64,000 bases of DNA from the sequence record MW735835.1. The stretch is one strand, 5' to 3'. Under the pieces are notes generated by a model. The model had not been told where the DNA came from. It saw nothing but the letters and a program-made list of their open reading frames with translations, and ran no database searches. This document shows, piece by piece, positions 4,678-63,246 of this stretch. The DNA is from Pseudomonas phage pPa_SNUABM_DT01. Position numbers and translations under genes: made by a program. Each line of letters begins with the position of its first letter. The stretch's first letter is position 1.

Positions 4678-4686
4678 TCGTCAACA

Positions 4687-4723: not shown

Positions 4724-4744
4724 TGTTCGATTCGATTCCAATAT

Positions 4745-4770
4745 TTTTCAATGATACATGATACCAGTGA
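4745..4770 (+). promoter_or_regulatory. AT-rich promoter-like box tttttcaatgATACATGATAcCAGTGA (class A)
   Basis: A near-identical box recurs at 7720-7750, 22371-22396 and 25317-25344, always 40-60 nt upstream of a + strand start. It is AT-rich in a GC-rich genome. Confidence 0.55.
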
Positions 4771-4815
4771 CTAAGGAGAATAATCTCCCTTAACCATCTC
4801 CCTGGAGGAGTTATC

Positions 4816-5466: not shown

Positions 5467-5497
5467 CCCTGAGAGATTCCATTCAAGGAATTCTCAG

Positions 5498-5520
5498 AGA
5501 TACATTATCAACGTGTATAT
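5498..5520 (+). promoter_or_regulatory. promoter-like box gATACATTATCAACGTGtATAT (class B)
   Basis: Nearly identical to 40835-40857 upstream of the putative shell gene. Located about 95 nt upstream of the ATG at 5613. Confidence 0.5.
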
Positions 5521-5612
5521 TGGAAGCAGTGCGTAAATAAAAACGCAACGCGCTGAAGATGTGCGACAACACGTGTTGATCGATCATTTCTACATCCCTA
5601 GGAGTTACACCA

Positions 5613-7670: not shown

Positions 7671-7676
7671 ATACTG

Positions 7677-7710
7677 GGGAGAGCGCTTGCTCTCCCCGCT
7701 ATGCCGTGTC
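7677..7710 (+). terminator. hairpin ggggagagcgcttgctctcccc followed by a TATGCCGTGT box
   Basis: Starts 7 nt after the stop at 7670. Same architecture as 4687-4723. Confidence 0.5.
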
Positions 7711-7719
7711 GATTGAAAA

Positions 7720-7750
7720 GTTTTACAGCAATACATGATAGCAGTGAGTA
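7720..7750 (+). promoter_or_regulatory. promoter-like box ttttacagcaATACATGATAgCAGTGAgta (class A)
   Basis: Matches the 4745 box at 20 of 24 positions. Located 32 nt upstream of the SD/ATG of gene 7782. Confidence 0.55.
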
Positions 7751-13525: not shown

Positions 13526-16105
13526 GTGGACTTCATGACCTCCGATGACTTTCTGATCGACCACGCGTACAAACACGTGTGGTGTGCGCCGGAGCAGGAC
13601 CGGCAGCACATCCTGCGTCCTGCGCGCATCAGCCCTAAAGTCGGGGCTCGTGGAAGTACTGACGTGTTGTGGAACACGTTCAACCTGCCCACCGAAAAAG
13701 AACGCTACCATGTCTTCCAGTTCGGCAACATCGCTCAGAGCAACCTTGATCTGAAGCTGACGCGGAACACCTGGACGAGCGCCAGCTCCCAGATGGTGGA
13801 CAGCATGATGCTGGTGGACATCTACACCGAAAGGGGGTTGATGATTCCGCGTCGGTTGGCGTACTTCCTGATGACCAACGATGGCAACATCGTGATTGCT
13901 GTGGAACACCTGCCGAACATCGGTGACTTCGGTCGCGAAGATATCTACGTTCGTTTCTACAGCAACCAGTTCTTCGCTCGTTTGGACGTGCCCGATGACG
14001 AAGAAGGCATCGAGTACCATTACGGCAAACCGGCCAGCACGGGTCAGCTGAACGCCCTGACGTTCAAGCTGCGCGACCTGCGCCTGAAGTCCGGTTACAC
14101 CTTCGCCTTCGTCAATGGCTGGCGAGTGAACGAGATCAACAACGCAACGGTGGCCATTGGTGACCGGGTGGAGTTGGTCCGTGACAGTTCCGTGGTGCGT
14201 GTAGAAGAGTTCGAGGTCAAAGACCTGCCGGTGTTCCTCTCCGAGTTCGACGAGTGCCAGAAGTACTTGATCCATTCCAAGGTTCCGAACGATGACCAGA
14301 TCTGGTATCGCGACGACCAGGACCTGTTCCTGTACTACAAGAAGACGCCGTTTGTCCACAAGGGCATTTATTACCACAAGAACCAGGAAGACTCCATCCG
14401 CATGGTCACGCATCGGGACTACTCGATTCCGACCGCGTACGTCGACCGGTTCCTGACGCAGAACCCCAACTGGGCGGTGAACAGCCAGCTCACGGTTCAG
14501 CTCGTGGTACGGCGCTCCGGCATGGACAAGGAGCTGATGAGTGAGGCTCACCACATCAAAGAACTGTACAAGTTCGATGACGCGGATTGGCTGGCTGCCA
14601 TCATCGGTACTGAGGCCGTAGTGGACGTGTGGCGGATCGAAGAACTCGAGAAGTCCATGTACACCGCGCTGATGCGCGCCCCTGCCGGTACCATCACCCG
14701 CGAGATGGTCGAAGCCGCTTATGGTTACAACACCATCGCCCGGATCGTGGCGGACACCCCTCAAAAGGTGCCCGGTCCCAAGCAGTGGGTCGAACTCCCG
14801 TTTGGCCTGCGTGGCGAAAGCACCATCTACGAGTACGACTCCTCTGGCAAGTTGCTCGGTTGGTACGCCAACCAGAACGTGCAGTGGTACGTGCCTCGGT
14901 CGCTGCGTTGCAGCTACATCGAAGGCATTGTGGGCAAAGGCACGGACGTGCTCAGCACGGTCTACGCTGGCAACCACAAGCCTGCCGCTGGCCTGACCTA
15001 TCGTTGCTACATCACCGCCATCGAGAACGGTTACCCCACCGGTGACTGGATCGACGTGACCGGGGATGACACCAAATACGACCTCATCGATGGGGAAGTG
15101 GTGTGGAAGGTCAACCCGCTGTTGTTTTACACCGCAATCAAGATGGACGATTCCTTCTTGACCTACAACCTCGAACTCGATTACGCGGACGGGTTGCTGC
15201 GGTTCAGTCTGAACGTGAAGGAGCTGCGCATCAACGGCATCCTTTACACCGGGCTGGTGGAGATCCCGGCAGGGTTGCTGGAGATCTGGTTGAACGGTTG
15301 CCCGCTGATCGAGAAACTCGATTGGTACATGGAAGGCAAGGAAATCGTCATCGTCAACAAGCAGTACCGCAACCGGACTGGCACGTCGAATACCATCACC
15401 ATTCGCCACACCGGCTTCTGCAACCCGGACATGACCCGGGTGAAAGAGTCGGAGTACGGTTGGGTGGAGAACGGTCTCCTGAGCCGGAACAACCGCTGGA
15501 ACCTGCGGGACGACAAAGTGGTGCGTGTCATCGCTGATGGCCGTATCTGGAGCCGAGAAGAATTGAGCTGGGCAGAAGACCGCCCAGAAGTGGTCTTGCC
15601 GGGTGTGCGCAATGGTGCAGCTTATCAGGTCACCGAACCGCTCATCCCGCTGCGCGGCGTGACGTTCGAGGATGCCTACGAGATGCGCGATGTGGCGGAA
15701 GCCACGGACAAGCAGATCGAGGATTACATGACCGAGCGTCTGGGTGAAGTCCCACCGCAAGAGTTCAACCCGATTCCGTTCCGCCACACGCTGTACAGTC
15801 CCTTCGTGGGCAAGCTGATGCATGACCTGATCAGCGGGTACTTCGATCAAACCCCTCTGACCGATTACTACAGCGACGTGGATGTGCGTAAGTGGTGCGA
15901 ACCCTACGTCTGGTTGCTCAAGTACGAGCCGACCAAGCGTAACCTCGACGAGCGGTACGTCGTTGTGGATGCGCATGAGCGCGTAGAGCCGTTCCGGCTG
16001 CCGATTCACCAGTACAACTTCTTGGCCCGCGCCATCAAGGTGATGCTGGACGACAAGATCGACATCACGCACTCGATTCTGATCGACCACCTGCCCATTG
16101 AATAA
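13526..16105 (+). CDS. large hypothetical protein (859 aa), possibly virion structural
   Basis: Protein-like composition. The overlapping minus ORF 12485..16168 (1227 aa) is H/V/D/R/Q-rich antisense. SD aaggtggacttcATG. Confidence 0.7.
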   Translation: MDFMTSDDFLIDHAYKHVWCAPEQDRQHILRPARISPKVGARGSTDVLWNTFNLPTEKERYHVFQFGNIAQSNLDLKLTRNTWTSASSQMVDSMMLVDIYTERGLMIPRRLAYFLMTNDGNIVIAVEHLPNIGDFGREDIYVRFYSNQFFARLDVPDDEEGIEYHYGKPASTGQLNALTFKLRDLRLKSGYTFAFVNGWRVNEINNATVAIGDRVELVRDSSVVRVEEFEVKDLPVFLSEFDECQKYLIHSKVPNDDQIWYRDDQDLFLYYKKTPFVHKGIYYHKNQEDSIRMVTHRDYSIPTAYVDRFLTQNPNWAVNSQLTVQLVVRRSGMDKELMSEAHHIKELYKFDDADWLAAIIGTEAVVDVWRIEELEKSMYTALMRAPAGTITREMVEAAYGYNTIARIVADTPQKVPGPKQWVELPFGLRGESTIYEYDSSGKLLGWYANQNVQWYVPRSLRCSYIEGIVGKGTDVLSTVYAGNHKPAAGLTYRCYITAIENGYPTGDWIDVTGDDTKYDLIDGEVVWKVNPLLFYTAIKMDDSFLTYNLELDYADGLLRFSLNVKELRINGILYTGLVEIPAGLLEIWLNGCPLIEKLDWYMEGKEIVIVNKQYRNRTGTSNTITIRHTGFCNPDMTRVKESEYGWVENGLLSRNNRWNLRDDKVVRVIADGRIWSREELSWAEDRPEVVLPGVRNGAAYQVTEPLIPLRGVTFEDAYEMRDVAEATDKQIEDYMTERLGEVPPQEFNPIPFRHTLYSPFVGKLMHDLISGYFDQTPLTDYYSDVDVRKWCEPYVWLLKYEPTKRNLDERYVVVDAHERVEPFRLPIHQYNFLARAIKVMLDDKIDITHSILIDHLPIE

Positions 16106-20121: not shown

Positions 20122-20126
20122 TGCGG

Positions 20127-20160
20127 CATACAGGGCAGGCCACTTGGCCTGCCCTGTATG
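20127..20160. terminator. GC hairpin catacagggcaggccacttggcctgccctgtatg between convergent genes
   Basis: Perfect 14-bp stem. It lies between the terL stop (20121) and the stop of the minus gene 20164. No U-tract. Confidence 0.5.
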
Positions 20161-22306: not shown

Positions 22307-22370
22307 CTGGTATCCTGTTGGAGACAGTAGCCTGAGTATCATAGCGATACGCGGCTCCATTCGAAATTTC

Positions 22371-22396
22371 TTCAACCATACATGATAACGGTGACT
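22371..22396 (+). promoter_or_regulatory. promoter-like box ttcaaccATACATGATAaCgGTGAct (class A)
   Basis: In the divergent intergenic region, 39 nt upstream of the ATG at 22435. Confidence 0.5.
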
Positions 22397-22434
22397 TAGC
22401 AACACTAACCAGTAATTGCCTTAGGAGTTTTACC

Positions 22435-23055
22435 ATGACCCTCGCTGCCCACCCGGTAATCAAGTTCCTCGCTAACAACGAAACCGAAGTGAACCTGCAC
22501 ATTGACCACGAAGCTCTGGAGACCATCATGAATCAGGAAGATAACCGCCCCATGGCCGATGACCTCTTCGCTCACATCCTGAGCCCTACCCGCATCGTGG
22601 CCAAAGGCGATACCATGGGCATCGGTGCCATCCAGGAAGTGGAAGGTACGCTGACCAGTCGGATCTTCTCGTTGCTGGAAGAGACCCGGGGCTGCAAGTT
22701 GCAAACGGAATTCCGTGAGCGTGCCTGGGATCATCCGGCCTACGAGCTGATTCATGACGAACTCAAGCAGGCTCTGCTGGCGGGTTCGCTGAACAGCAAG
22801 TTCGACCAGATCGAAACCACCGGCGCCGTCGTGGTCTACGACAAGCAGCGTAAGCTGGCGACCATCGGCCTGAACATGGTCGCCATGCGCAGCAACATCC
22901 GTGAGCAGGCATTCCTGATGGCTGACCACAAGAACGCGCGTATCATCGATCGCATCAACGGCGTCCCGGAAGCCAACTTCACCTTCGAGCCGAAGAAGAA
23001 GCCGGAACCGCATGTCGAGATGAGCACCACGTTCTACGTCACCTTCGAACTCTGA
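22435..23055 (+). CDS. hypothetical protein (206 aa)
   Basis: SD ggagttttaccATG. The minus ORF 22405..23079 is compositionally antisense-like. Confidence 0.65.
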   Translation: MTLAAHPVIKFLANNETEVNLHIDHEALETIMNQEDNRPMADDLFAHILSPTRIVAKGDTMGIGAIQEVEGTLTSRIFSLLEETRGCKLQTEFRERAWDHPAYELIHDELKQALLAGSLNSKFDQIETTGAVVVYDKQRKLATIGLNMVAMRSNIREQAFLMADHKNARIIDRINGVPEANFTFEPKKKPEPHVEMSTTFYVTFEL

Positions 23056-25260: not shown

Positions 25261-25263
25261 CAT

Positions 25264-25297
25264 AGCGGAGGGCCTAGGCCCTCCGCTTATGCCGCCT
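25264..25297 (+). terminator. hairpin agcggagggcctaggccctccgct followed by a TATGCCGCC box
   Basis: Same hairpin-plus-TATGCC architecture as 4687 and 7677, followed at 25317 by the promoter box. Confidence 0.5.
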
Positions 25298-25316
25298 CAC
25301 CGAATTCTATTCGAAT

Positions 25317-25344
25317 ATTTTTCAGCAATACATAGTCACAGTGA
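25317..25344 (+). promoter_or_regulatory. promoter-like box tttttcagcaATACATaGTcACAGTGAgc (class A variant)
   Basis: Matches the 7720 box at 24 of 28 positions. Located 49 nt upstream of the ATG at 25393. Confidence 0.5.
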
Positions 25345-25392
25345 GCATGGATAAACCTGCTCGACAATTACCTGTTCTTAGGAGAACAAACA

Positions 25393-25761
25393 ATGCAACA
25401 CGCCAAAATGATGGACATCGCTCGTGCCGTTGTAGCCAATGGCTTCAAAGTCGTGGACGATCACAGCCCGAATGGGAGCCTGGAATCCCTAGCGGCAGTG
25501 GGCTATCACTACCGTGGCGAGCGTATGCACGTTGTTGCCCTGTACGAGAACACCCCGTACTTCAGCATCAACGAAGTGTACATCGACGAAGAAACCGGCA
25601 AGCCTCATCTGAGCCGGACCTCTGTCGGTGGCGTCATCAAACCCCAAGGCGATCTGGAAGCTGGCATCGAGCAATACAACGAAAGCCAGAAAGCCTATCG
25701 CTCCAACAATCCTGCGTACATCGGCGAAGTGTTCCGCGCCGAAGAAGGAGAAGCAGCATGA
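25393..25761 (+). CDS. hypothetical protein (122 aa)
   Basis: SD ggagaacaaacaATG, with normal composition. Confidence 0.6.
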   Translation: MQHAKMMDIARAVVANGFKVVDDHSPNGSLESLAAVGYHYRGERMHVVALYENTPYFSINEVYIDEETGKPHLSRTSVGGVIKPQGDLEAGIEQYNESQKAYRSNNPAYIGEVFRAEEGEAA

Positions 25762-27606: not shown

Positions 27607-28359
27607 ATGATGGGTGTCAACATAAGGAGCGCACTCGTGCAACAAGAAACGGCCCACCTCTGGGATAGCTTGCAGTACCGTCAGGAAATGCATGATCGAC
27701 TGTTCCACAGCGACATCTACAACCTGGCCAAGCCCCACCGCCTGACCCACTTGGTTCTGCATCAGGCCAAGTACGTGTCGCGCTACCACATGGCCCTCAA
27801 GGATGCCGATGCGTTCCGTAAGACCTACTCGGACAAGTCGGAAACCACCACGTTGCCCGAGGGCCACATCACTGAAGCCGTGAGGCGACTGACCATCGAC
27901 GGGGTGATCATCTGCCTGTCCACGTTGAACGTCTGCAACCGCAAGATGTCCGACCTGCTCGACAAGTACATGATCTGGGATCTGAACGAATGTGCTGATC
28001 AACTGATCGTCTCCATGGGCAAGATGGCCAAGACTGTGGAAGACATCGACCACATGGCGCAGATCCGTCCGCTGGGCACCATGGTCGAACTGACAAAGGT
28101 CATGACCCAGGCGTACATCAACCTGTGGACCTTCTCCAGTGACCGAGATGGCGTTAATCATTTGCTAGAAGCATGCTACCATCGGCTGAACGAGGTAGAG
28201 CGGAAGCACATCTTCGCCGATCAGCTCCAGACCGAGATGCTCGTCAGTATCAACGAACATCGCAAGCGCACCGGCCATCCGACCGTGACCCCATCTGCCG
28301 CCTACATGGACATCGCTGTATGGCGCAGTGGTAATGGCGGCGGTGCCGTCTCCGGCTAA
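27607..28359 (+). CDS. hypothetical protein (about 250 aa)
   Basis: SD gaaggtacacATGATG. Real composition; the minus ORF 27586..28161 was rejected. Confidence 0.55.
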   Translation: MMGVNIRSALVQQETAHLWDSLQYRQEMHDRLFHSDIYNLAKPHRLTHLVLHQAKYVSRYHMALKDADAFRKTYSDKSETTTLPEGHITEAVRRLTIDGVIICLSTLNVCNRKMSDLLDKYMIWDLNECADQLIVSMGKMAKTVEDIDHMAQIRPLGTMVELTKVMTQAYINLWTFSSDRDGVNHLLEACYHRLNEVERKHIFADQLQTEMLVSINEHRKRTGHPTVTPSAAYMDIAVWRSGNGGGAVSG

Positions 28360-28374
28360 TCGAACTTTCCACAA

Positions 28375-28398
28375 TGATACATTATCTTTGTGCACATA
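28375..28398 (+). promoter_or_regulatory. promoter-like box tgATACATTATCtttGTGcacatac (class B)
   Basis: Located 30 nt upstream of the SD/ATG of the tubulin gene and shares ATACATTATC with 5500, 40837, 50001 and 54912. Confidence 0.5.
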
Positions 28399-28427: not shown

Positions 28428-29420
28428 ATGAATCAGAACAACGGCCTCTCTACCCGCCCCGTCGGCAAGATCCGCATCTACGGTTGCGGTGGTGGTGGCG
28501 TGAACATCGGTAAGGAATACCTGGATCAGGGTCACAGTGGCGACATCGCCAACATCGAGGCCTGCTTCATCGATACCTCCGACGCCAACCTGGAAGACCG
28601 CCTGATCGACAAGACCTGGCTGTTCGACGACCTCGATGGCTCCGGCGCCGTTCGCCAGACCAACGTGGCCGCCATCCAGAAAGCAATTCCCGACATCATC
28701 CGCAAGTTCCCGGCGGCCGACGTCAACATCGTGATCTTCACCCTGGCCGGCGGCACCGGCTCGGTCGCAGGTCCGCTGCTACTGCAACAACTGCTGGCCG
28801 ACGGCCACATGGCGGTCGCCATCGTCATCGGTGCCAAGCACTCCGGCCGTAACGCCGAGAACACTCTGGCCACCGTCAAGACCCTGGACGCCATCCGTCA
28901 CGTCACCGGCAAGCCGGTCGTCATGCACCTGGGCATCAACTCCACCAACGCGCCGACCGATGACGGCGTGGACCGTGAAGCTCATCTGATGATCACCTCG
29001 CTGGCCATGCTGTGCTCCCGCCGTAACCATCGCCTGGACACCGCCGACCTGCGTTCGCTGTTCGACTTCACCAAGTCCACCAGCGCCCCGGCTCAGATGT
29101 GCCGTCTGCACGTGACCGACAACACCGAAGCCTTCAACAAGGTGATGAAGACCGGCCCGCTGGCCGCTGCGTACCTGCTGCGCCAGTCCACCGACCCGGT
29201 ACCGGATCTGTTCGTGCCTTACAGCACCTACGGCACCATGCCGGCCATCGCCCAGGCCAGTGGCAGCCTGTTCTTCGGCATCGAGAGCGGTTCGATGGTT
29301 GAACTGCACAAGCTGGTCGCTGACCTGCAAAAAGAAGTCGAAACCCAGAAGCGGGCGGCTACCCAAGCCACCAACTTCGTCGATGCTCCGCCGGCCGGCG
29401 GCAGCGTCCTGGTCTTCTGA
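28428..29420 (+). CDS. phuZ: tubulin/FtsZ-like GTPase, PhuZ-type phage spindle protein
   Basis: T1 loop IYGCGGGGVNIG (GGGGxxxG) and the tubulin signature TLAGGTGSVAGP (GGTGSG). SD gaggaagcaacacATG. At 330 aa its size fits PhuZ. Confidence 0.8.
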   Translation: MNQNNGLSTRPVGKIRIYGCGGGGVNIGKEYLDQGHSGDIANIEACFIDTSDANLEDRLIDKTWLFDDLDGSGAVRQTNVAAIQKAIPDIIRKFPAADVNIVIFTLAGGTGSVAGPLLLQQLLADGHMAVAIVIGAKHSGRNAENTLATVKTLDAIRHVTGKPVVMHLGINSTNAPTDDGVDREAHLMITSLAMLCSRRNHRLDTADLRSLFDFTKSTSAPAQMCRLHVTDNTEAFNKVMKTGPLAAAYLLRQSTDPVPDLFVPYSTYGTMPAIAQASGSLFFGIESGSMVELHKLVADLQKEVETQKRAATQATNFVDAPPAGGSVLVF

Positions 29421-29427
29421 CCCACAC

Positions 29428-29470
29428 GGACTGTGGAGCTAACCCCTCCACAGTCCTTATGCCGTGTTAC
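29428..29470 (+). terminator. hairpin ggactgtggagctaacccctccacagtcc followed by a TATGCCGTGTT box
   Basis: Begins 8 nt after the phuZ stop. Same TATGCC flank as other hairpins. Confidence 0.5.
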
Positions 29471-31390: not shown

Positions 31391-31431
31391 AGAGAGCAGA
31401 GGAATTCCTCTGCTCTCTGGCTTTATTTTTT
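31391..31431 (+). terminator. intrinsic terminator (agagagcagaggaattcctctgctctct plus tttatttttt)
   Basis: Perfect 11-bp stem followed by a T-run. Confidence 0.7.
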
Positions 31432-31486
31432 CAGACGACCAACCGGTTATTATATACTGGGGTGACCTATTCTGTAGGGGGAGGAT

Positions 31487-35880: not shown

Positions 35881-35884
35881 AAAC

Positions 35885-35931
35885 GGAGAGTAGCTCTATT
35901 ATGAGCTACTCTCCGATACTTTATTTTTTCT
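35885..35931 (+). terminator. intrinsic terminator (ggagagtagctctattatgagctactctcc plus ttattttttctttt)
   Basis: Perfect 12-bp stem followed by a T-run. The ATG at 35901 annotated in the ORF track sits inside the hairpin loop. Confidence 0.7.
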
Positions 35932-35954
35932 TTTGTTGGGACAAGGCACGAGCG

Positions 35955-38240
35955 ATGGAAAACCCATTTGTACTTCCAAAGGACGCCTACGTTCGCGATC
36001 TCGATCTGCTGAAAGGCTACTTCAACCAGAACACCCTCTTCCTGCACCGGATGACCGGTCAGCCAAAGGAAAAATGCCTGACCTTCCTCAAGAAGACCCT
36101 GTCTCGTGGCGGCGCATTCCCTCTGCGCGACCCGAACATGCTGGTCCTCAAGCAAGAGAGCCCGGGCAACCGCGTCAAAGACGAGATGACCCTGCTGTCG
36201 TACGTCAATACGGTCACCTCGACCAACCGTATCATGTCGCCGTCGATGGTTTGCTACGAAAACCCGAAGGTATTGAAGTCCCCTTCGGCCAAATTCGTGG
36301 AATCCGGCATCGCTGGGCGTAAGAAAGCCAAGAACGAGATGTTCGTGGCCAAAGTAAACGGTGATGAAGTCCTCGAAAAGATCAAGGACGCCGAGCAGAA
36401 CGCCAAAAAGATCGCGATCAACTCGCTGTCGGGCATGCACGGCTTCACCGGCAACATTCTCTACGTGAAATCGGGCCATTCCAGCCTGACTTCCATGTGC
36501 CGTTCGGCTACGGGCTACGGTAACGCCAACAACGAGAAGCTTTTGGCGGGCAGTCGACACTATCACTCGCCCAAGATAGCCATATCAAACATGCTGGCGC
36601 TGATTGATAGCCAACCGCACGACAAATTCCAGGCGGCGATGGATCATTGCGGCTTTGTGTACCCGACTGTTGAGCAAACCGCCGAGTGCATCAAGCGCAG
36701 CACCGACCTCTACTGGCGTAACGCTGGCAATTTCCAGAAGATCGTGGACTTCATTGTCCGTCTGACCCCGCTGGAACGCGCCATTGTCGTCTACACTGGC
36801 GATCTGTACCATATCGCCAAGTACAACGGTGACTATGTCCGTGGGTTCATGGACAAAATCATCAAGTACGACCCGAAAGCCGACCCGACAGTCGTGGACG
36901 ATGGCTACGCTGTACTTACCGGCAAGAAAATCGACGACGATACCAAGATGCTGGCAACCTACCTCAACGCGGAATACACCCGTGGCGAGAACTTCGACTC
37001 CTTGAAGGAGAAGGGCATGCACGATGTGCTTGCCATGGTAGCCAAAACCGCGTTCAACGTCCAGTCTGTAGTCCAGGAGTACTTCGTGTTCATCCGCACG
37101 ATGCTGACTCCGGTGCTGTTGGCGCCGACCGTGGCAAACATCAAGGGCATCCTGCGTCGTGTGGTGCTGGCTTCTGACACCGACTCGACCATCTTCACCA
37201 CGCAAGAGTGGGTGAGCTGGTACACTGGTAGCGACCATCGCACCAAAGAAGGTGACGGTATCTGGTACACCACGACCTACGTGGCTTGCCAGTGCATCGT
37301 GCACGTCCTGGCCCAATTGTCCGCCAACATGGGGGTGATCCAGGAAGACCTGCACCGCCTGACCATGAAGAACGAGTACGCCTTCCCGGTGTTCACCCTG
37401 ACCAACCGGGCCAAGCACTACTACGCCTTCATGAGCTGCCGTGAGGGCAACGTGTACAAGGACTACGACATGGAGATCAAGGGCGTGGCTCTGCGGTCTT
37501 CTACCGTACCTGTCGCAATCATCAAGCAGGCGAAAGCCATGATGAAGGAGGTCATGACCCGTGCCGACCAGAACCGTCAGTTCACGCTCGAAGAGCTGTA
37601 CCTGACTGTCTGGAAGCTGGAGCAGGACATCTACACCTCCATCAAGAAGGGTGAGCACCGTTACCTGAAGTCGGCACAGATTCAGGCCTTCTACAACAAC
37701 ATGAACAAAGACAACCCGTATCTGGAGAAGACGAACCTTCGTCACTATCACATCTGGGAAATGGTCTTTGCTCCGAAGTACGGTCACGTTGAAAACCCGC
37801 CCTACTCGGTCATTAAGGTTCCGCTGGCGATCAACAACAAGACCGACATGCAGAACTGGTTTGCCCACATGGAATCGGTCGATCCTGACTTCGCAGCGCG
37901 GATGAAGGACTACTGTGACAAGGCAGGCCGGACCGAGATTGGTACGCTGATGCTGCCTCTGTCGATCCTGGCAGGCGTGGGGATGCCCGATGAAGTGATG
38001 GCAGTGATCGACATCCGTCGACTCACCTACGAGATCCTGGAGTCGTTCTACATGATCCTGGAATCGTTGGGTGTGTTCCAGGTGGACAGCAAATACGTCC
38101 GCTTGATCAGTGACATCTATACACCGGAAGGCGAAGTCAACCTGCAACCGGAAGCAACCGATGCGAACAGCCTCATTGAAGAAGATGAGGACCTTCTGTA
38201 CGAGGAAGACGACGATGGAGAAGATTGGCTCGCCGACTGA
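35955..38240 (+). CDS. family-B DNA polymerase, palm/thumb fragment (motifs B and C only)
   Basis: Motif B KKIAINSLSGMHGF (KxxxNSxxG) and motif C VLASDTDSTIF (DTDS). No DxxSLYPS motif A and no exonuclease motifs, implying a split polymerase. Start moved to ATG 35955 (MENPFVLPK), downstream of the terminator hairpin. Confidence 0.65.
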   Translation: MENPFVLPKDAYVRDLDLLKGYFNQNTLFLHRMTGQPKEKCLTFLKKTLSRGGAFPLRDPNMLVLKQESPGNRVKDEMTLLSYVNTVTSTNRIMSPSMVCYENPKVLKSPSAKFVESGIAGRKKAKNEMFVAKVNGDEVLEKIKDAEQNAKKIAINSLSGMHGFTGNILYVKSGHSSLTSMCRSATGYGNANNEKLLAGSRHYHSPKIAISNMLALIDSQPHDKFQAAMDHCGFVYPTVEQTAECIKRSTDLYWRNAGNFQKIVDFIVRLTPLERAIVVYTGDLYHIAKYNGDYVRGFMDKIIKYDPKADPTVVDDGYAVLTGKKIDDDTKMLATYLNAEYTRGENFDSLKEKGMHDVLAMVAKTAFNVQSVVQEYFVFIRTMLTPVLLAPTVANIKGILRRVVLASDTDSTIFTTQEWVSWYTGSDHRTKEGDGIWYTTTYVACQCIVHVLAQLSANMGVIQEDLHRLTMKNEYAFPVFTLTNRAKHYYAFMSCREGNVYKDYDMEIKGVALRSSTVPVAIIKQAKAMMKEVMTRADQNRQFTLEELYLTVWKLEQDIYTSIKKGEHRYLKSAQIQAFYNNMNKDNPYLEKTNLRHYHIWEMVFAPKYGHVENPPYSVIKVPLAINNKTDMQNWFAHMESVDPDFAARMKDYCDKAGRTEIGTLMLPLSILAGVGMPDEVMAVIDIRRLTYEILESFYMILESLGVFQVDSKYVRLISDIYTPEGEVNLQPEATDANSLIEEDEDLLYEEDDDGEDWLAD

Positions 38241-39109: not shown

Positions 39110-39118
39110 TGAGGCAGC

Positions 39119-39149
39119 ATAGAGAGCGGCCAGTGGCCGCTCTCTATGC
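39119..39149. terminator. hairpin catagagagcggccagtggccgctctctatg between convergent genes
   Basis: Perfect 13-bp stem between the + stop at 39109 and the minus stop at 39151. Has CATAGAG and TATGCC flanks. Confidence 0.5.
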
Positions 39150-40629: not shown

Positions 40630-40830
40630 GAACTGAATCGTAAAAAATAACTCGATAGTGCATATGGTATAGGAGATCTGCTCCGGCCAGGGTTTAGCCT
40701 TGGCGAATGGGAGGGTATTTCCTTTTCTCGGACAGGCAGGGCGGTAAAACCACCAAACCCCGCCCGTAAATTTAAACGCACCGCCTGCATCATGTTGAGG
40801 CTAGGAATGTAAATTCCATTCGAAAAACTC

Positions 40831-40857
40831 ACGGGGATACATTATCAACGTGAATAT
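40831..40857 (+). promoter_or_regulatory. promoter-like box acggggATACATTATCAACGTGaATATcgg (class B)
   Basis: 21 of 22 identity with 5500-5521. Located 68 nt upstream of the putative shell gene within a 295-bp leader region. Confidence 0.55.
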
Positions 40858-40924
40858 CGGAGCCAAGCTTCAAGATGTTCACTAGGCCCTAGTAACATTC
40901 TTTTCCATCCCAAGGAGTAACACC

Positions 40925-42832
40925 ATGGCTGTAAACAACGACGAAACCCTCGACACCGGCGCCGGCAGCGAGCAACCCCGTCGCAACGAACCGCGCGGCG
41001 AACCGCGTGGTGAGCGTCGTGAGACCAACATGAACGCCGGTCTGCTGGACATCAACCGCCTCCTGGGCGCCCCGATGAGCCGCCGTATCTCCGGCGAAGT
41101 TCTGGTCAATGCCGTCAAGGCCATCAAGCACTGGTTCGCTCCCGAGCGTCAAGTAGCCGGCGGCGGTCTGATCGATCTGACCAAGATCCAGGTTCTGGGT
41201 CTGGAAGCCTCCGAGCACAACGTCTCGATCTCCAGCGCCATCCTGGCCTACCCGGTCGAAGAAAACGGCACCGTCAAGGTGCTGGTGCACTCCATCGCTC
41301 TGGCTCAGAGCCTGACCGACGACGTCGGTGTGCGTACCGCCGAGATCAACCACCGCAGCTACACCCTGCCGGTGATCCCCTCGGACTACATCACCGAGAG
41401 CTACCTGGCTCTGATCGACGAAATCGTCAAGAAGAACTTCGAGCAGTCCCGCAAGAACGTCGAAATCGTTCGTGCCGGCTGGCGTGTGGTTTCGCCGAAG
41501 GTCGACTTCAGCGAGCCGGAAAACACCGAAGTGCGTCAGGTCGTGTTCTTCGCGCAGGCTGCGCTGGCCGCCATCTACGGCGACCTGTACAACGAGAACC
41601 TGTACTTCTCGCTCGACTGGCTGACCAAGGCCTCCACCCTGGAGATCAACGTCGACCTGTCCGGCCGCGAAGTGTTCACCGCTGACGGCCTGCCGCGTCG
41701 TTCCGACCTGGCCGTGCAAGTCGCCGGTATCGTCCGCAAGGGCGACCAGAACATCCCGGTTCCGCTGGCCAACCTGGGCGGCTACGTCAACATCATGTAC
41801 ACCCCGCCGGCGCAAGAAGAGCGTTGGGCCCGCAACCAGCGCCGTGATCAGCCGTACTTCACTCCGGTGTACGTGATCAACCGCATGGACACCGGCACCA
41901 ACGGCATCACCCCGGAACTGCTCCTGCTGGCCATGGCCGGCGCCTCGGTCATCTCCAAGGACCAGGCCTGGGCGCAGGGCTTCCTGCCGGGCGACGTGCA
42001 GCGCGGTGAAGTGGACTACCGTGACGCCGGTCTGCTGAACATCCTCGGCCCGGATCAGGACAAGCAGCCTGTCGTGTTCGACAGCCGCTCGAGCCTGGAC
42101 ACCAACAAGTGGGCCCAGTACTTCTTCAGCCTGGTGGACGACAACCTGGCCTGGGCAATCGAGCTGGAAGAAGGCGGCGACAACAGCTGGATCACCAGCC
42201 TGCTGTCCGACGCTGCAACCGACGACAGCCCGAACAAGGACGCCATCCGCCGTCTGTACGACTACGCGGACCGTCTGACCAACGGCAACTTCACCCGTCG
42301 TGCCAAGGAGCTGGGCGTCGAAGTCCCGCTGCAAATGTCCGGTGCCCGTTACCTGACCGGTACCTGGATCGACGAGAACGGCAAGGAGCGCGACCTGCGC
42401 GACTGGGACCTGCTGCGCTGGATGGCTTCCAACCCGAGCGACGAGGGCGAATCCGCTCTGCGCTACCAGGACGTCATCGACCGCACTGACCTGGACGTGG
42501 AAATCCGCGTTTCCGAGCAGTTCGACCAACTGACCCAAGCCCTCGGCGCGAGCAACGTCAAGTTCGCCCGCTACGTGGACCTGGCCTTCATCAACCCGGC
42601 CTTCATCGAGGCCCTCGCCATGGCCGTTGCTGATTGCAAGATCAACATCGACCAGCGCTCTGCGCACTACACCTTCGGCAACCGTCGCCTGCGTGGTAAC
42701 ACCCGCATCCGCGACTTCGTCGGTGGTGACCTGACCCACGGCATGCTCTCGAGCCGCCGCATGGGCAACGACGGTCAGCGTGGTCTGCGTTCCGTAGTCG
42801 GCAACGGCTTCGGTTTCGGCAACACCTACTGA
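40925..42832 (+). CDS. chmA: putative chimallin (ChmA), major phage-nucleus shell protein
   Basis: 635 aa (about 70 kDa) with low-complexity N- and C-terminal extensions. Lies immediately upstream of the RNAP beta-prime N-terminal gene, as in phiKZ gp54/gp55. Strong SD aaggagtaacaccATG and its own promoter box. No motif-level confirmation is possible from sequence alone. Confidence 0.5.
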   Translation: MAVNNDETLDTGAGSEQPRRNEPRGEPRGERRETNMNAGLLDINRLLGAPMSRRISGEVLVNAVKAIKHWFAPERQVAGGGLIDLTKIQVLGLEASEHNVSISSAILAYPVEENGTVKVLVHSIALAQSLTDDVGVRTAEINHRSYTLPVIPSDYITESYLALIDEIVKKNFEQSRKNVEIVRAGWRVVSPKVDFSEPENTEVRQVVFFAQAALAAIYGDLYNENLYFSLDWLTKASTLEINVDLSGREVFTADGLPRRSDLAVQVAGIVRKGDQNIPVPLANLGGYVNIMYTPPAQEERWARNQRRDQPYFTPVYVINRMDTGTNGITPELLLLAMAGASVISKDQAWAQGFLPGDVQRGEVDYRDAGLLNILGPDQDKQPVVFDSRSSLDTNKWAQYFFSLVDDNLAWAIELEEGGDNSWITSLLSDAATDDSPNKDAIRRLYDYADRLTNGNFTRRAKELGVEVPLQMSGARYLTGTWIDENGKERDLRDWDLLRWMASNPSDEGESALRYQDVIDRTDLDVEIRVSEQFDQLTQALGASNVKFARYVDLAFINPAFIEALAMAVADCKINIDQRSAHYTFGNRRLRGNTRIRDFVGGDLTHGMLSSRRMGNDGQRGLRSVVGNGFGFGNTY

Positions 42833-46391: not shown

Positions 46392-46398
46392 GTCAGCA

Positions 46399-46428
46399 TA
46401 GAGGGAGGCTTCGGCCTCCCTCTTTTAT
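46399..46428 (+). terminator. hairpin agagggaggcttcggcctccctct plus ttttatgg
   Basis: Perfect 10-bp stem with a uucg-type loop and a short T-run. CATAGAG flank. Confidence 0.55.
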
Positions 46429-46440
46429 GGAGATAAGGTC

Positions 46441-49890: not shown

Positions 49891-49996
49891 GGACTAATCC
49901 CATCATCGAGTAGATGAATCGTCACAGGGTCGGACTCGACCCTGTGACGACCTTATACCCTGTTGACGGGAGGATTTCTGCTGAAGCGTTTTATAG

Positions 49997-50020
49997 CGAT
50001 ACATTATATCCTTGAATACC
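49997..50020 (+). promoter_or_regulatory. promoter-like box cgATACATTATatccttgaatacc (class B)
   Basis: Located 25 nt upstream of the ATG at 50045. Confidence 0.45.
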
Positions 50021-50044: not shown

Positions 50045-51607
50045 ATGCAGATTCATATCCATGAACTGTCGGGCAAGGGCATCACGATGCTCCGACTCGA
50101 GCACAAGGGTGAGCAGTTGCTGCTATCTGCGGGCAGCTATCACTCGGCGGCTATCATCAATCGCGAAGTGCTGTTCAAGGAGACCAACGAATTTCTGAAG
50201 TCCCTTCCGGACGAAGACCAGGATCGACTGTGGAGCATCTACCAGCGTGTGGATGACTACCTGTCGTCTGAAGAGATTCGTTCGTCCTTCTTTATCCGCG
50301 CCGAAGTGGAGCGGGTGGTCAAGGAGCTGTACCAGATCATCGGGTACCCGCAGCTTCGTGCGTTCATCGACAAGATTCGTCCGGACATCCCGGGCGACGT
50401 GAGTGAGAAGTTCGAGGAATTCAACGAACGTGGCCGGAACTACCGGAGCCGTACCTACATCAAGCCGGATTACCTGGACTTGGTGGCAATGGCCTTGGGC
50501 CTGCGTTTCATGGTGCCGGTCTGGGGCATGTACATCCAGAACGTCTCGTCCATCAACGGCAACGGCTACAAGGAATCCGAAGCGGTCAAGCTCATCGAGC
50601 TGGCTGGCGTGGATAAATGGCCGCCGTACATCCGGATGAACGAGTACATCGAAGCGAGCGTGGAGAAAGAAGTCAGCATGACCATGGTCATGGCCGGCCT
50701 CTCCTCCGAGGAAGTCCCGCGGCACCTGATGGCGATGGCCTTGGTCCGCAAGATTTCCATCGGCCCGCTGAGCACCACTCAGGAACGCGACAGCTTGGCG
50801 CGCATCCTGTTCAACTACGTTACGGGCACCCACCTGCGTATGGATGGGCGGTTTGCGAGTGTGACTGGCATCGTCCAGGCCAAACGCCACCGCAATCTGG
50901 ACAAAGGTGACGAGGACAACTCCTCGGTGCTGGACGACTACAACCAGACGACTGAGATCACCGAGGGTGATCGTCAGATGATCGAGGTCTTCAGTGAGAA
51001 TGTCGCGGTGATTGTGAACCGTGCAGCTCCTGACTTGGACCTGGCCCGGGTGCAGCAGTGCATCTCGGTCTGCTCACGGCACGAGGCCCGTCCGGTCGAA
51101 GCGTTCCAGAAAGCCATCGTGTTCTGGGTTCTGCGTTCCATCTCGCCGGAAGCGCGTGAGCTGCTGCTCAAGCGTACCCATTTCCGCCTGATGGGCATTG
51201 CGCAAGCAATCCTGGATCACTGGGGTTTCCACGAACTGGCCATCCTGGTCTCGGCGGAGGAGTACATCCACGAGGACGGTGAAGCTTTCATTCCGATGGA
51301 GACCCGTAACAAAATCACCCGTCAGCAAGCCGAGATTCTCGACAAGCAGTATCCGTACTACCGTCAGGAATCGAAGCGTCAAGACCCCGGCAAACGCGGC
51401 AACGTCGCGGTAATCGCCATCGACCAAGTCGTCGATTGGATGAGCGGCCGGGCTTGGAAGCCACATGCACCGCGCGACATCATCGAGAAGATCCCGTTGC
51501 TTTCTCAGACCGGGTACCTGTACATCTCTGGTGATATTCGCCGTCAACTAGCCGACATGATCATTCGTGTCAACAACAACCTGGGGAGCCAACATGCAAC
51601 TGCTTGA
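50045..51607 (+). CDS. hypothetical protein (520 aa)
   Basis: Balanced composition. The antisense ORFs 50123..50890 and 51074..51547 were rejected. Confidence 0.65.
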   Translation: MQIHIHELSGKGITMLRLEHKGEQLLLSAGSYHSAAIINREVLFKETNEFLKSLPDEDQDRLWSIYQRVDDYLSSEEIRSSFFIRAEVERVVKELYQIIGYPQLRAFIDKIRPDIPGDVSEKFEEFNERGRNYRSRTYIKPDYLDLVAMALGLRFMVPVWGMYIQNVSSINGNGYKESEAVKLIELAGVDKWPPYIRMNEYIEASVEKEVSMTMVMAGLSSEEVPRHLMAMALVRKISIGPLSTTQERDSLARILFNYVTGTHLRMDGRFASVTGIVQAKRHRNLDKGDEDNSSVLDDYNQTTEITEGDRQMIEVFSENVAVIVNRAAPDLDLARVQQCISVCSRHEARPVEAFQKAIVFWVLRSISPEARELLLKRTHFRLMGIAQAILDHWGFHELAILVSAEEYIHEDGEAFIPMETRNKITRQQAEILDKQYPYYRQESKRQDPGKRGNVAVIAIDQVVDWMSGRAWKPHAPRDIIEKIPLLSQTGYLYISGDIRRQLADMIIRVNNNLGSQHATA

Positions 51608-54879: not shown

Positions 54880-54900
54880 GCTCAGTCCTCGTTTGAATTT

Positions 54901-54926
54901 TCTTCAGAAATACATTATCTAGTTGG
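54901..54926 (+). promoter_or_regulatory. promoter-like box ttcttcagaaATACATTATCtagttgg (class B)
   Basis: Shares ttcttcagaa plus the AT box with 62491-62512. Located 38 nt upstream of the ATG at 54964. Confidence 0.5.
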
Positions 54927-54963
54927 CAAGCCAATGCTCACCTGTAGTGTAAGGGAGTCACCG

Positions 54964-57189
54964 ATGACAAGTAACCAGTCTGTCCAGGAGCAACTGGCTC
55001 AGTACTATGCTCAGTCCGCCCGTAATCCGGTGGAACTGCATCCTGAGTTGATGTCGCTCTATGGGCTCAACCCGTTTATCCGGCACATCTCCGCATCCCG
55101 TGCGGCTATGTTCACCGGCAACCTGGCACAAATGGTGGTAATCAAGGAGCCCACCAGGAAGCACATCATGACCCTGATGGAGCGTCCGTTTGCCGATACG
55201 ACGTTCTCGATTGAATTCGAGGACAACGTGCAGATCCTTAAAATCATCCCGCGCTTCGGCCACACCGCCGGTGCCAACCGTATCCGGCATTCGCCGCAGA
55301 CGGCCATCATTTACGAGAACCAGCGCACCAACGAGATCGGGGTGACGATGCTGACGGACTACCACGTCACGCACCAGCACTTCGGCACCGAGTTCAAGCG
55401 CAATCGTGACGTGATGGACCTGATGCGCGAGAAGGCGTACTTCAAGGCTGGTACCAAGCTGGCCCACAGTCCGCTGATTGACCAGTATGGCAACTACATG
55501 TACGGCCGCGAGACGAACGTGCTCATGGCGTCTGACGTGGCAGGGACTGAGGACGGTGTGAAGGCCCGTCGGGGATACCTGGAGAAGTTGGCCCCCACAG
55601 GATTTGAGACTCGTGTCTTCGAATTCGGGCGTGAGTTCTTCCCGACCAACCAATCCACAGTCCCCGGCATCTATAAGGTCATGCCTGACCTGGGCGAGAA
55701 GGTAAGCAGCACTGGCTTGCTGGTAGCGCTGCGCCGGTATGACCCGATCAGTGGCGTGGCCAACATGACCACCGAGGCGCTGCAACAGCCGGACTACATC
55801 TTCGACCGGAAGCGGTTCGTCCAACACATCGATGCTGAAGTGGTGGACATCAAGGTCGAACGCAACACCTCGATCAACATCCCGCCGTTGCCGGTGGGCA
55901 TGGAAGATCAGCTGCTCAAGTACTACAACGCCGACACCGAGTTCTACAAGAAGATCGTGGACTTCTGGTGGGAAAAGCGTAAAGAAGCGCGCAAGCGTGG
56001 GTACGAAGAGCTGCCGATGGAGCCGGAGTTCAACCATCTGGTGTTCGAAGCCATCGGCCGGGTTGGTCCTGACCATCTGCGGTCGGACCATGGGTTCAAC
56101 CGGAAGGTCGATGAAGCCGTCTCGGGCGGTAAAGTCGACAAGGTCTACCGCGGCGTGAAGCTGGACGCATGGCGCGTGGAGATCACCTTCAAGTACCTGT
56201 CCATCCCGAACAAGGGCTATAAGATCACCGACATCAACGGCAACAAGTCCGTCGTGGTCGAGGTGGTCGATGACGAAGACATGCCGGTCGACGAGAACGG
56301 AATCGTCGCTGACATCGTCGTAGACCCGAACTCCCGTTGGAACCGGGTAACACCAGCATCCCCGATCGAAATGGTGATCTCGGGTGCCGGGCGTGACCTG
56401 GGCAAGCGCCTCCAGCATGCCTTCGGGTTCCCCATGAACGATCAGTTGAAGGAGGATGAAGTAAACGACGTCGTCTATTCTCCCGAGAACCGTGATCTCG
56501 TGGAGTATTGGTTCGACGAGCTGATGGAGTTCTACAAGGTAGTCGCTCCGTACCAGTACGACGACCTCTCGGACCCCGAGTACCACCGCTTCAACCCGGA
56601 GTACAAGCACACGCAAGTGGCCGCAGTCATGCTGGATCACCTGCTGGGCATCGACCTCACCATGCCGACCGATAACCCGGTCCACATGCCGGATGTCATC
56701 CGCGCCATTCAGGAGCGCTGGCCTCCGTTCATCACCCCTGTCCGCTTCCGCGGCCGGGACGGCAAGATGAAGGTGTCCCGTGAGCCGATGCTGATTGCTC
56801 CGTCCTACTACATCAACCTGGAGAAGACCGCAGAAGACTCGTGGATGGCTGCATCGTCCGCGAAGTGCAACGTGTTCGGTACCACTGCGCGTCTGTCCAA
56901 CAACGACAAGTACGACTCTCCCGGTCGTCAGTCGTCCATTCGTGTCGGTGAGTCCGAGATTCGCTCGGAGTCCGCTGTCTGTGGTGGTGAAGCCACTGCC
57001 GATCAGAAGGACGCCTCCAACAACCCGATTGCGCACAAGTTCGTGCTCCGTCGGCTGTTGACCCACCCGACCCCGACCAACATCGAGGAGGTTCTCGATC
57101 GGAAGGTGGTTCCGGTAGGCGGGCATAGACCGTTGGCCTACATGCGCAACATGTTCGAATGCTCGGGCAAACAACTCACCAACGAATAA
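54964..57189 (+). CDS. multisubunit RNA polymerase beta subunit, C-terminal half
   Basis: DINGNKSVVVEVVDDEDMPVDENGIVADIVVDPNSRWNRV aligns with bacterial beta [38 protein letters not shown]. Downstream RVGESEIRSE parallels the conserved RFGEMEVWALE region. SD aagggagtcaccgATG. The 1482-aa antisense ORF 54958..59406 was rejected. Confidence 0.7.
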   Translation: MTSNQSVQEQLAQYYAQSARNPVELHPELMSLYGLNPFIRHISASRAAMFTGNLAQMVVIKEPTRKHIMTLMERPFADTTFSIEFEDNVQILKIIPRFGHTAGANRIRHSPQTAIIYENQRTNEIGVTMLTDYHVTHQHFGTEFKRNRDVMDLMREKAYFKAGTKLAHSPLIDQYGNYMYGRETNVLMASDVAGTEDGVKARRGYLEKLAPTGFETRVFEFGREFFPTNQSTVPGIYKVMPDLGEKVSSTGLLVALRRYDPISGVANMTTEALQQPDYIFDRKRFVQHIDAEVVDIKVERNTSINIPPLPVGMEDQLLKYYNADTEFYKKIVDFWWEKRKEARKRGYEELPMEPEFNHLVFEAIGRVGPDHLRSDHGFNRKVDEAVSGGKVDKVYRGVKLDAWRVEITFKYLSIPNKGYKITDINGNKSVVVEVVDDEDMPVDENGIVADIVVDPNSRWNRVTPASPIEMVISGAGRDLGKRLQHAFGFPMNDQLKEDEVNDVVYSPENRDLVEYWFDELMEFYKVVAPYQYDDLSDPEYHRFNPEYKHTQVAAVMLDHLLGIDLTMPTDNPVHMPDVIRAIQERWPPFITPVRFRGRDGKMKVSREPMLIAPSYYINLEKTAEDSWMAASSAKCNVFGTTARLSNNDKYDSPGRQSSIRVGESEIRSESAVCGGEATADQKDASNNPIAHKFVLRRLLTHPTPTNIEEVLDRKVVPVGGHRPLAYMRNMFECSGKQLTNE

Positions 57190-62512: not shown

Positions 62513-62652
62513 ATCGAAAGCGTTCTTTGGTTTTTTCACGGTGCAGCCATTGATTTTCTTCCCGTTGATTTACGGTGCGGGTATTATGCTTTATTGAACC
62601 GTTTTATAGCCCTACATTAAACTACTGAGAATCCAATCACCTAGGAGCTATC

Positions 62653-63246
62653 ATGGATATTGCGGAACTGCGTAATCAGATCGTCACAGCCTTCGAAGAG
62701 AAGTGGTCGATCAACGATAAAGCGCACCAACAGAATCACTTCGAGGCTGTGTTCCAATGCGGCCTGAAAATCAATGAACGGCTGAACTGTGGGTTCGATC
62801 CCAAGTTGATCCTGTTCGCTGCCTACTTCCACGATCTGTTTGCGTGGAGTCGGGTGAACCACCATGAACTGTCATTCCACTGGATGATGACCACCGATCA
62901 CAAGGTGATTACGGATAACCTCGATCCGATGGAAAACCAGTTGGTAGCCTGGGCGTGCCATCAACACCGGGCATCGTTCAAGGGTAACTTCAAGTACATC
63001 TTCTGCGAGCTGATTAACTCAGCAGATCGGGAGTTCCCGGGCAATGTGGCGATGATGCTGGAGCGGGCGGTGCTCTATCGTCAGAAGAACTTCCCCATGA
63101 TGTCGGTGGAGCAAGGTTTCGAAGATGCTGTCAAGCATCTGAAGGAGAAGTTCGGCCATGGCGGATATGCCCGTTACCCGGACATGTATCTGAAATGTTT
63201 CGCTGAGGAGTTGGAAGCTCAGCGCGACCACATCATGGCGTTGTAA
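62653..63246 (+). CDS. HD-domain phosphohydrolase-like protein
   Basis: H...HD signature (NHFEAV ... AAYFHDLFAW) plus downstream His/Asp residues. SD aggagctatcATG. Confidence 0.45.
   Translation: MDIAELRNQIVTAFEEKWSINDKAHQQNHFEAVFQCGLKINERLNCGFDPKLILFAAYFHDLFAWSRVNHHELSFHWMMTTDHKVITDNLDPMENQLVAWACHQHRASFKGNFKYIFCELINSADREFPGNVAMMLERAVLYRQKNFPMMSVEQGFEDAVKHLKEKFGHGGYARYPDMYLKCFAEELEAQRDHIMAL

Follow-up and report, generated by a model that had tools for sequence, protein, structure and literature searches.

Genomic context of the promoter-like box

The window, by which we mean the whole 64,000-nucleotide stretch of DNA analyzed here, is a 57% GC piece of the genome of a nucleus-forming jumbo phage, a divergent chimallivirus. 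It codes for chimallin, the nuclear shell protein (40925 to 42832; phrog_4795, 2e-63), the tubulin PhuZ (28428 to 29420), and a DNA polymerase (35901 to 38240), as well as SbcD, a helicase, a tail sheath protein, a terminase, a prohead protease, and a gp28-like vertex protein. RNA polymerase (RNAP) fragments are present at 42925, 54964, and 57202; the second of these is a beta gene of the non-virion RNAP (nvRNAP), of the phiKZ gp71-73/PhiPA3 gp065 type. The product of gene 50045-51607 is homologous over its full length to the fifth nvRNAP subunit of phiKZ, gp68 (BLASTP 2e-48, 24% identity). All of the RNAP homologs within the window are nvRNAP subunits, and genes for a virion RNAP (vRNAP) would be outside it. 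The gp68-type fifth subunit is possibly the specificity subunit.

The stretch from 28.4 to 61.3 kb is collinear with phiKZ gp39 to gp75 and EL gp16 to gp40, and the chimallin is ~24% identical (23 to 25%) to its homologs in Xoo-sp14, FLC9, 201phi2-1, and phiKZ-type phages. A megablast search of GenBank phages with 4 kb around the focal site upstream of the chimallin gene found no match. The clade to which the window belongs is made up of uncultured phages of ~250 to 277 kb in IMG/VR and JGI metagenomes (loci L008 to L036 and L040 to L044), the closest contig having 85% nucleotide identity, and 17 IMG/VR contigs, mostly 250 to 277 kb long, encode chimallins with 69 to 83% amino acid identity to that of the window.

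A repeated element upstream of ten genes

The first-pass annotation had flagged a promoter-like box upstream of the chimallin gene, with a second copy near position 5500 identical at 21 of 22 positions. The identity is borne out for 40836-40857 (GATACATTATCAACGTGAATAT) and 5499-5520 (GATACATTATCAACGTGTATAT), which have the common form GATACATTATCAACGTG[A/T]ATAT; the ranges first given start at the A, a base too late. Sequence similarity continues well beyond the box, with 82% identity over 49 nt (40813-40861 against 5476-5524), including the sequence ATTCCATTC 23 nt 5' of the box, and the Shine-Dalgarno regions that follow the two boxes are also similar. The related boxes reported before the tubulin gene, gene 50045, and the RNAP beta gene are all present: ATACATTATC occurs exactly at 5500, 28377, 40837, and 54910, and the copy at 49999 (ATACATTATA) has a single mismatch. 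Allowing up to one mismatch, ATACATTATC has seven matches in the window where 1.1 are expected, a number reached by no shuffle.

Inspection of the flanks shows a TG dinucleotide five bases past the 9-mer box at every window site. The composite motif ATACATKAT-N5-TG has eight exact copies in the window (0.00 expected), all eight on the plus strand and all eight intergenic, with a co-oriented gene start 26 to 98 nt downstream in every case. A position weight matrix (PWM) built from the window sites finds one extra copy, at 62612 (CTACATTAA, score 20.7), and has no match on the minus strand of the window; a further candidate box at ~62490 (ATTTCATGATACCATCG) falls below the PWM threshold and was rejected. 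The eight exact and two degenerate copies (25328 and 62612) together give ten predicted promoter elements in the 64-kb window (Table 1). Four of these sites (4754, 7731, 22378, and 25328) had been placed elsewhere or left out of the list in the first-pass annotation.

Placement of the element is strongly nonrandom in a window whose coding fraction is 94%. The core 8-mer TACATNAT occurs eight times on the plus strand of the 3.9 kb of intergenic sequence, compared with six times on both strands of the ~60 kb of coding sequence, an enrichment of ~40-fold. When the core is anchored by the TG, there are nine intergenic copies and one coding copy, so boxes are far from being equally frequent inside genes. 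The flagged box is a real feature and is statistically clear. The 5' untranslated regions (5'UTRs) predicted from these elements span 26 to 98 nt with a median of ~40 nt, and several of the elements lie directly 3' of terminator hairpins. Among the genes preceded by the box are those for chimallin, PhuZ, and the homologs of gp68 and gp71-73; there is no box in the window upstream of the virion protein, protease, tail sheath, vertex protein, or terminase genes.

Table 1. Predicted promoter elements of the window, with positions numbered from its first base
Downstream gene	Box type	Element	Strand	Box	TG	Predicted 5'UTR	Other features
Small-ORF cluster starting at 4816	G	4735..4773	+	ATACATGAT 4754-4762	4768-4769		Terminator hairpin immediately 5'
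5613-6092 (159 aa, phrog_9746)	T	5481..5519	+	5500-5508	5514-5515	98 nt	Just 3' of terminator 5442-5466
7782-9419	G	7712..7750	+	7731-7739	7745-7746		Terminator hairpin 5'
22435-23055	G	22359..22397	+	ATACATGATAnCAGTGAnTAA 22378-22386	22392-22393		Divergent intergenic region
25393-25761	AG	25309..25347	+	ATACATAGT 25328-25336	25342-25343		Terminator hairpin 5'
PhuZ tubulin (28428-29420)	T	28358..28396	+	28377-28385	28391-28392	36 nt	
Chimallin (focal site)	T	40818..40856	+	ATACATTAT 40837-40845	40851-40852	73 nt	ATTCGAA 40818-40824; predicted +1 at G40852
gp68 homolog (50045-51607)	T	49980..50018	+	49999-50007	50013-50014	31 nt	
nvRNAP beta (54964-57189)	T	54891..54929	+	54910-54918	54924-54925	39 nt	
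62653-63246 (phrog_3921)	T, degenerate	62593..62631	+	CTACATTAA 62612-62620	62626-62627		

Anatomy of the element

When the ten sites of the window are aligned with 29 orthologous ones in relatives (39 sites from up to 10 lineages), they show a consistent layout, which reads from 5' to 3' as ATTCGAA, 7 nt of T-rich sequence, C/T-A/G-nnn, the box [A/C]TACAT[T/G/A][A/G]T, a spacer N5, TG, and A-n-T-A. Relative to the box, ATTCGAA occupies positions -19 to -13, the T-rich stretch with its CA positions -12 to -4, and the TG positions +15 and +16 in the numbering of the alignment. Relative to the predicted start, these correspond to ~-34 to -28 for ATTCGAA, ~-27 to -19 for the T-rich stretch with CA, -15 to -7 for the box, and T(-1)G(+1) for the dinucleotide.

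Identity is 90% or more, and mostly at least 94 to 95%, at ten positions (T-17, A-14, T2, A3, C4, A5, T6, T9, T15, and G16), both within and between promoter groups. The TG, with its G exactly 6 nt past the 9-mer box, is present at 38 of the 39 sites, and the five spacer positions drift, with identities of 0.23 to 0.43 between promoter groups and 0.46 to 0.71 within groups of orthologs. If the conserved G is +1, an A falls at -11 and a T at -7. The box is most likely the -10-region core of a ~40-bp phage-specific promoter with ten copies in the window.

Conservation in relatives

Across ~290 kb of IMG/VR relatives, all PWM matches are co-oriented with the gene that anchors their locus. Strong matches lie directly 5' of the orthologs of chimallin, PhuZ, nvRNAP beta, 5613, 7782, and 22435, and further strong matches are found at positions corresponding to the promoters of genes 50045 and 25393, where BLAST of the downstream open reading frames (ORFs) against the window gave nothing. 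The two weak matches (in L012 and L023) precede an ORF without a match in the window.

At the chimallin gene, the element is kept in 17/17 relatives as [C/A]TACATTAT-N5-TGAATA, with CTATATAAT in two of them (L016 and L017). The region 5' of chimallin is highly conserved as a whole (68% mean column identity), so conservation of this site is not box specific, and the conservation argument therefore rests on the other nine sites. The PhuZ promoter is T-type in 4/4 further lineages (L032, L033, L034, and L036), reading ACACATTAT in L034, and the promoters of the gp68 homolog and of nvRNAP beta are T-type in L028 to L031. In L025 and L026, the 5613 ortholog retains ATACATTAT and the 7782 ortholog retains ATACATGAT. 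The 25393 promoter has ATACATAGT or CTACATAGT in 5/5 lineages, and the orthologs of 22435 differ in their variant, which is GAT, TAA, or AAT.

GTDB genomes scanned with a 48-mer gave nothing, and a metagenome scan returned relatives only, at no more than 85% nucleotide identity. The exact 17-mer is present in seven IMG/VR contigs, of which three (L002, L004, and L007) were rejected as unrelated chance matches, and a blastn search of phages with the 51-nt promoter yielded only chance matches in unrelated Gram-positive phages, short AT-rich queries of this kind being uninformative.

Resemblance to early promoters of other jumbo phages

All RNAP-encoding jumbo phages have their own AT-rich motif of ~10 nt, centered near -10 and located 5' of early operons, that is recognized by the vRNAP (PMC7598289), and early transcription of phiKZ and AR9 is independent of both host RNAP and protein synthesis (PMC7598289; PMC5312081). 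AR9 early promoters have the form AAATATATATTAT-(6N)-G+1, and in phiKZ and phiR1-37, there is a conserved start 6 nt past the element (PMC5312081). The phiKZ early promoters consist of an extended -10 box with a T-rich region upstream of -19, and early UTRs are mostly 31 to 40 nt (PMC8244752); in 201phi2-1 and phiKZ, conservation is seen at -10, -20, and -30 (PMC11512511). The T-rich stretch with CA and the ATTCGAA of the window agree with the upstream T-rich region (PMC8244752) and with conservation at these three positions (PMC11512511). Published early-promoter consensi are WTTTYAAACCTACATTATY for EL, ...TTTYARRYAKATATTATYWWADTG for OBP, ...TTTCARRYAKATATTATYWAAGTGWA for N1M2, ...TATATTACDWHDGTG for 201phi2-1, and TATATTAC for phiKZ (PMC7058600, Table 2). 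The comparison with the phiKZ early consensus that had been proposed as a check gives a match in both sequence and spacing, and this holds for the EL, OBP/N1M2, and AR9 consensi also.

The closest likeness is to EL, OBP, and N1M2, whose motifs are themselves bioinformatic predictions. The window form TTTTCA-nnn-ATACATKAT-N5-TG-A has the OBP/N1M2 spacing and the EL box, and the OBP/N1M2 motif, TTTCA-RRY-AKATATTAT-YWAAG-TG-WA, is almost the same in sequence and spacing, although OBP has KAT at box positions 2 to 4 where the window has TAC. As in the window, EL has promoters before PhuZ and before the gp68 homolog: the RefSeq record annotates a "putative phage promoter" at these two orthologous positions, the latter upstream of gp33 (ATTTTAAACCTACATTATC). 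Promoter sequences of EL, FLC9, Xoo-sp14, and phiKZ were read directly from the genome sequences, and the chimallin gene of EL is preceded by CCATATTAC-CAGTG-TG-AATC. The window differs from EL, OBP, and N1M2 in tolerating G or AG at box positions 7 and 8 and in having a distinct ATTCGAA 13 to 19 nt 5' of the box. The latter block is also found in FLC9, where chimallin is preceded by ATTCAAA-N7-CAGGC-ACATATCAC-TAACT-TG, and in Xoo-sp14, which has ATTTAAA-N7-TAAGC-ATATATCAT-CCAAT-TG. In EL, CG and GG are also seen after the spacer, whereas the TG of the window is invariant, so the invariant TG is a feature of this lineage.

Experimentally mapped sites are available in phiKZ, whereas those of the window are predicted. 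Both have an AT-rich element near -10 and T-rich sequence upstream, the conserved start of phiKZ 6 nt on corresponds to the predicted start at the conserved G of the window, and both have such elements before gp54, gp68, and gp71 or their homologs. The phiKZ gp54 gene, which has a primary transcription start site (TSS) with the early motif (PMC8244752), is preceded by GAGATTTATATTAC-TAAATT-G-AATC, and analogous boxes precede gp68 (GATCTATATTAC-N6-G), gp70.1/gp71 (GATCTATATCAT), gp43, and gp53; the P54 sequence TTATATTAC-TAAAT-TG-AATC aligns with ATACATTAT-CAACG-TG-AATA of the window. The phiKZ box, however, is TATATTAC or TATATCAT, in contrast to TACATKAT in the window, and lies downstream of an A/T-rich tract lacking ATTCGAA in an AT-rich genome, whereas the window is 57% GC. 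Box variants include TACATTAT, TATATTAC, KATATTAT, and CATATCAC. The logic of the AR9 promoters is similar to that predicted for the window, in that an AT-rich element, long and almost invariant, is separated from G+1 by 6 nt and transcription is dependent on vRNAP and independent of protein synthesis (PMC5312081), although its box sequence is different, its DNA contains uracil, and it does not form a phage nucleus.

The middle and late promoters of phiKZ, which are read by nvRNAP, are likewise phage specific and belong to the same kind of genome. They have the motif AAanTTACc at -24 (middle) and TATG with G+1 (late) (PMC4666361), and both are absent from the box and conserved flanks in the window, where TATG is instead found at the 3' foot of terminator hairpins. 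Promoters of this type have been described before in phiKZ, EL, and OBP-like phages, and the predicted elements of the window are their local form.

Box variants within one promoter family

The ten boxes vary at positions 7 and 8, and the first-pass annotation had treated the T-type boxes as a class B, distinct from a class A to which the G- and AG-type boxes presumably correspond. Separate classes would mean that another polymerase form or factor, or another time of expression including middle, applies to the T-type sites. The variants are indeed kept promoter by promoter among relatives: T-type at chimallin (9/10), PhuZ (5/5), the gp68 homolog (3/3), nvRNAP beta (4/4), and 5613 (2/2), G-type at 7782 and 4816 (2/2 each), and AG-type at 25393 (5/5). 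Identity at box position 7 is 0.82 within ortholog groups and 0.40 between them, to be read beside the 0.46 to 0.71 of spacer positions within groups, and it is the core nucleus and transcription genes that have T-type promoters.

Against separate classes, both types share ATTCGAA, the T-rich stretch with CA, TACAT, T9, and TG, and an unbiased repeat finder mixes the types in each of its two families (D1 with 4732, 7709, 22356, 25306, 49977, and 62590; D2 with 4730, 5476, 25304, and 40813). The 22435 promoter is alone in varying among relatives, and the early promoters of phiKZ include TATATTAC and TATATCAT inside a single class. Middle expression in particular is disfavored since the box resembles neither the middle nor the late phiKZ motif (PMC4666361), and an nvRNAP-dependent middle promoter cannot be the sole promoter of the nvRNAP genes. 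We therefore regard two classes as improbable: because all other blocks are common to both types, a split into two promoter classes is unsupported, and the T-type and G/AG-type boxes are variants of one predicted promoter family rather than two specificities.

What survives of the proposed split is the variation at box positions 7 and 8, which is conserved at individual promoters. These positions are TA at the promoters of chimallin, PhuZ, the nvRNAP genes, and 5613, GA at those of 7782 and 4816, and AG at that of 25393. Position +2 behaves similarly, with an identity of 0.93 within ortholog groups and 0.43 between them. Retention of variants at each promoter suggests promoter-specific tuning, and a tentative extension, which we consider possible but rather unlikely, is that the variants at box positions 7 and 8 and at +2 are nonneutral and set graded promoter strengths, or finer differences in timing, among the genes of the vRNAP regulon. 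If so, there might be, for example, an immediate tier in which the nucleus and polymerase are made first and a second, delayed tier, and the A/B split would have a functional basis despite both types being read by a single enzyme.

Probable early transcription by the vRNAP

The ten elements of the window are probably early promoters of this chimallivirus that are read by the vRNAP. The multisubunit vRNAP would enter with the phage DNA from the virion and, once injected, would read the ten promoters before any phage protein exists, with transcription starting at the conserved G(+1). Under their control would be the genes for chimallin, PhuZ, and the nvRNAP subunits, together with several small genes that have no assigned function. 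The promoter reading itself, which agrees with that of the first-pass annotation, is well supported by the strict orientation of the predicted elements, their intergenic placement, their conservation at orthologous positions in relatives, their match to published consensi, and their location at the heads of nonstructural genes. We infer the start at the G, the vRNAP as the enzyme, and the early timing by analogy, and we assume that the phage encodes a vRNAP, as both vRNAP and nvRNAP are encoded by all studied nucleus-forming phages (PMC10299810).

Timing had been left as early or middle. The early alternative is favored by the match to early consensi and by the presence of the box at the chimallin, PhuZ, and nvRNAP genes and not at structural genes. 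Middle timing is unlikely because the nvRNAP genes themselves have the box, which must consequently be read by a polymerase that predates nvRNAP; in phiKZ, every subunit of the nvRNAP is an early product (PMC4666361). An early promoter at every nvRNAP gene is not a universal rule, given that some nvRNAP genes of 201phi2-1 have no early promoter nearby (PMC11512511).

Recognition by host RNAP, with sigma-70 or an alternative sigma factor, is the next explanation to consider, with CATKAT as a -10-like hexamer and TTCGAA as a -35-like one. If the start is placed at the conserved G, the box has an A at -11 and a T at -7, a geometry similar to that of a bacterial sigma-70 extended -10 promoter, TATAAT is matched at 4/6 positions in register, and there is an upstream element near -30. 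However, none of the ten boxes passes a scan for the sigma-70 consensus (TTGACA-N16-18-TATAAT, at least 9/12 matches), which may not be the consensus of the host's sigma factors, and TTCGAA matches TTGACA at only 3/6 positions with a 15-nt spacer. Conservation is also stricter than in sigma-70 promoters and includes non-sigma-70 bases, with near-invariance at 10 or more positions, among them the C at box position 4. Near-invariance over at least 10 positions is typical of phage-polymerase promoters. Moreover, sigma-70-like sites are depleted in the window, with 7 found and ~22 expected (1, 4, and 2 found compared with 6.2, 9.3, and 6.3 expected in successive 20-kb scans of positions 1 to 60000), in keeping with a phage that can do without the RNAP of its host. 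The same motif family is attributed in phiKZ and AR9 to the vRNAP, acting independently of host RNAP (PMC7598289; PMC5312081), and we judge host promoters to be very unlikely here.

That the box is not a promoter core at all and serves instead as the operator of a dimeric regulator, from the phage or the host, that binds the inverted repeat GATA-N3-TATC is hardly credible: GATACATTATC has GATA and TATC half-sites at 5499-5509 and 40836-40846, but this palindrome is not conserved in relatives, where the chimallin site reads GCTACATTATA/C and GCTATATAATC, it is broken at 54910 (AATACATTATC) and 49999 (..TATA) and absent from the G-type boxes, and the one-strand orientation of 10/10 window sites and of all matches in relatives argues against a symmetric site.

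With the ten elements taken as early vRNAP promoters, the window provides a predicted early-regulon map, comprising ten promoters and their start sites, for 64 kb of a high-GC chimallivirus lineage. The arrangement of box, N5, and TG together with a -30 element is common to phages as far apart as EL, OBP, FLC9, Xoo-sp14, and phiKZ, even with chimallin identities of only ~24% to Xoo-sp14, FLC9, phiKZ-type, and 201phi2-1 phages. The map is of use in annotation, in singling out uncharacterized genes that are predicted to be early (5613, 7782, 22435, 25393, 62653, and the small ORFs at 4816), and in comparative work on the drift of vRNAP promoter specificity; the current view of jumbo-phage transcription is unchanged by it.

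Other features near the promoters

GC-rich terminator-like hairpins are present at 4686-4724, 7671-7709, 20125-20160, 25263-25296, 29430-29464, 39118-39148, and 46396-46430. They are framed by (C)ATA...TAT followed by G-CCGT ("TATGCCGT") and are of the same type as the motif ...TTATKYYGT conserved in the terminators of phiKZ and 201phi2-1. Their 3'-foot TATG is identical to the core of the phiKZ late promoter (T-3 A T G+1). A different structure lies at 35884-35915, where a hairpin has a perfectly paired stem of 13 bp (CGGAGAGTAGCTC TATTAT GAGCTACTCTCCG) and the ATG of the DNA polymerase gene (35901) straddles the boundary between the loop and the 3' arm; this hairpin may terminate transcription of the gene upstream and at the same time occlude or regulate the start of the polymerase gene.

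The leader of the chimallin gene contains a palindrome, TTCACTAGG(C)CCTAGTAAC, at 40878-40896 that is invariant in 12/12 relatives and shows no covariation, which is more suggestive of a site recognized by its sequence than of a simple RNA stem. A 5'-terminal hairpin predicted in the same leader (z = -1.98) was considered as a conserved structure and rejected, as folding of the alignment gave only the palindrome, with no covariation. The leader of gene 5613 contains CAACACGTGTTG (5567-5578), and that of phiKZ gp54 contains CTAAGTACTTAG (L037, ~15597-15608), about equally far from the predicted start.

Three more blocks that are conserved among relatives, GGAGGGTATTTCCTTTTC, CGTAAATTTAAAC, and (C)ATAATGAGGCT, lie 5' of the chimallin promoter at 40712-40803. 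These may form a second promoter, a possibility that arises because phiKZ gp54 has a middle secondary TSS in addition to its early primary one. Lastly, gene 31487 is preceded at ~31430-31460 by an AT-rich element, TTATTATATACTGGGGTGA, that lacks the ATTCGAA and T-rich blocks and is also a weak sigma-70-like site (TTCAGA-17-TATACT, 9/12); it may represent a different type of promoter.
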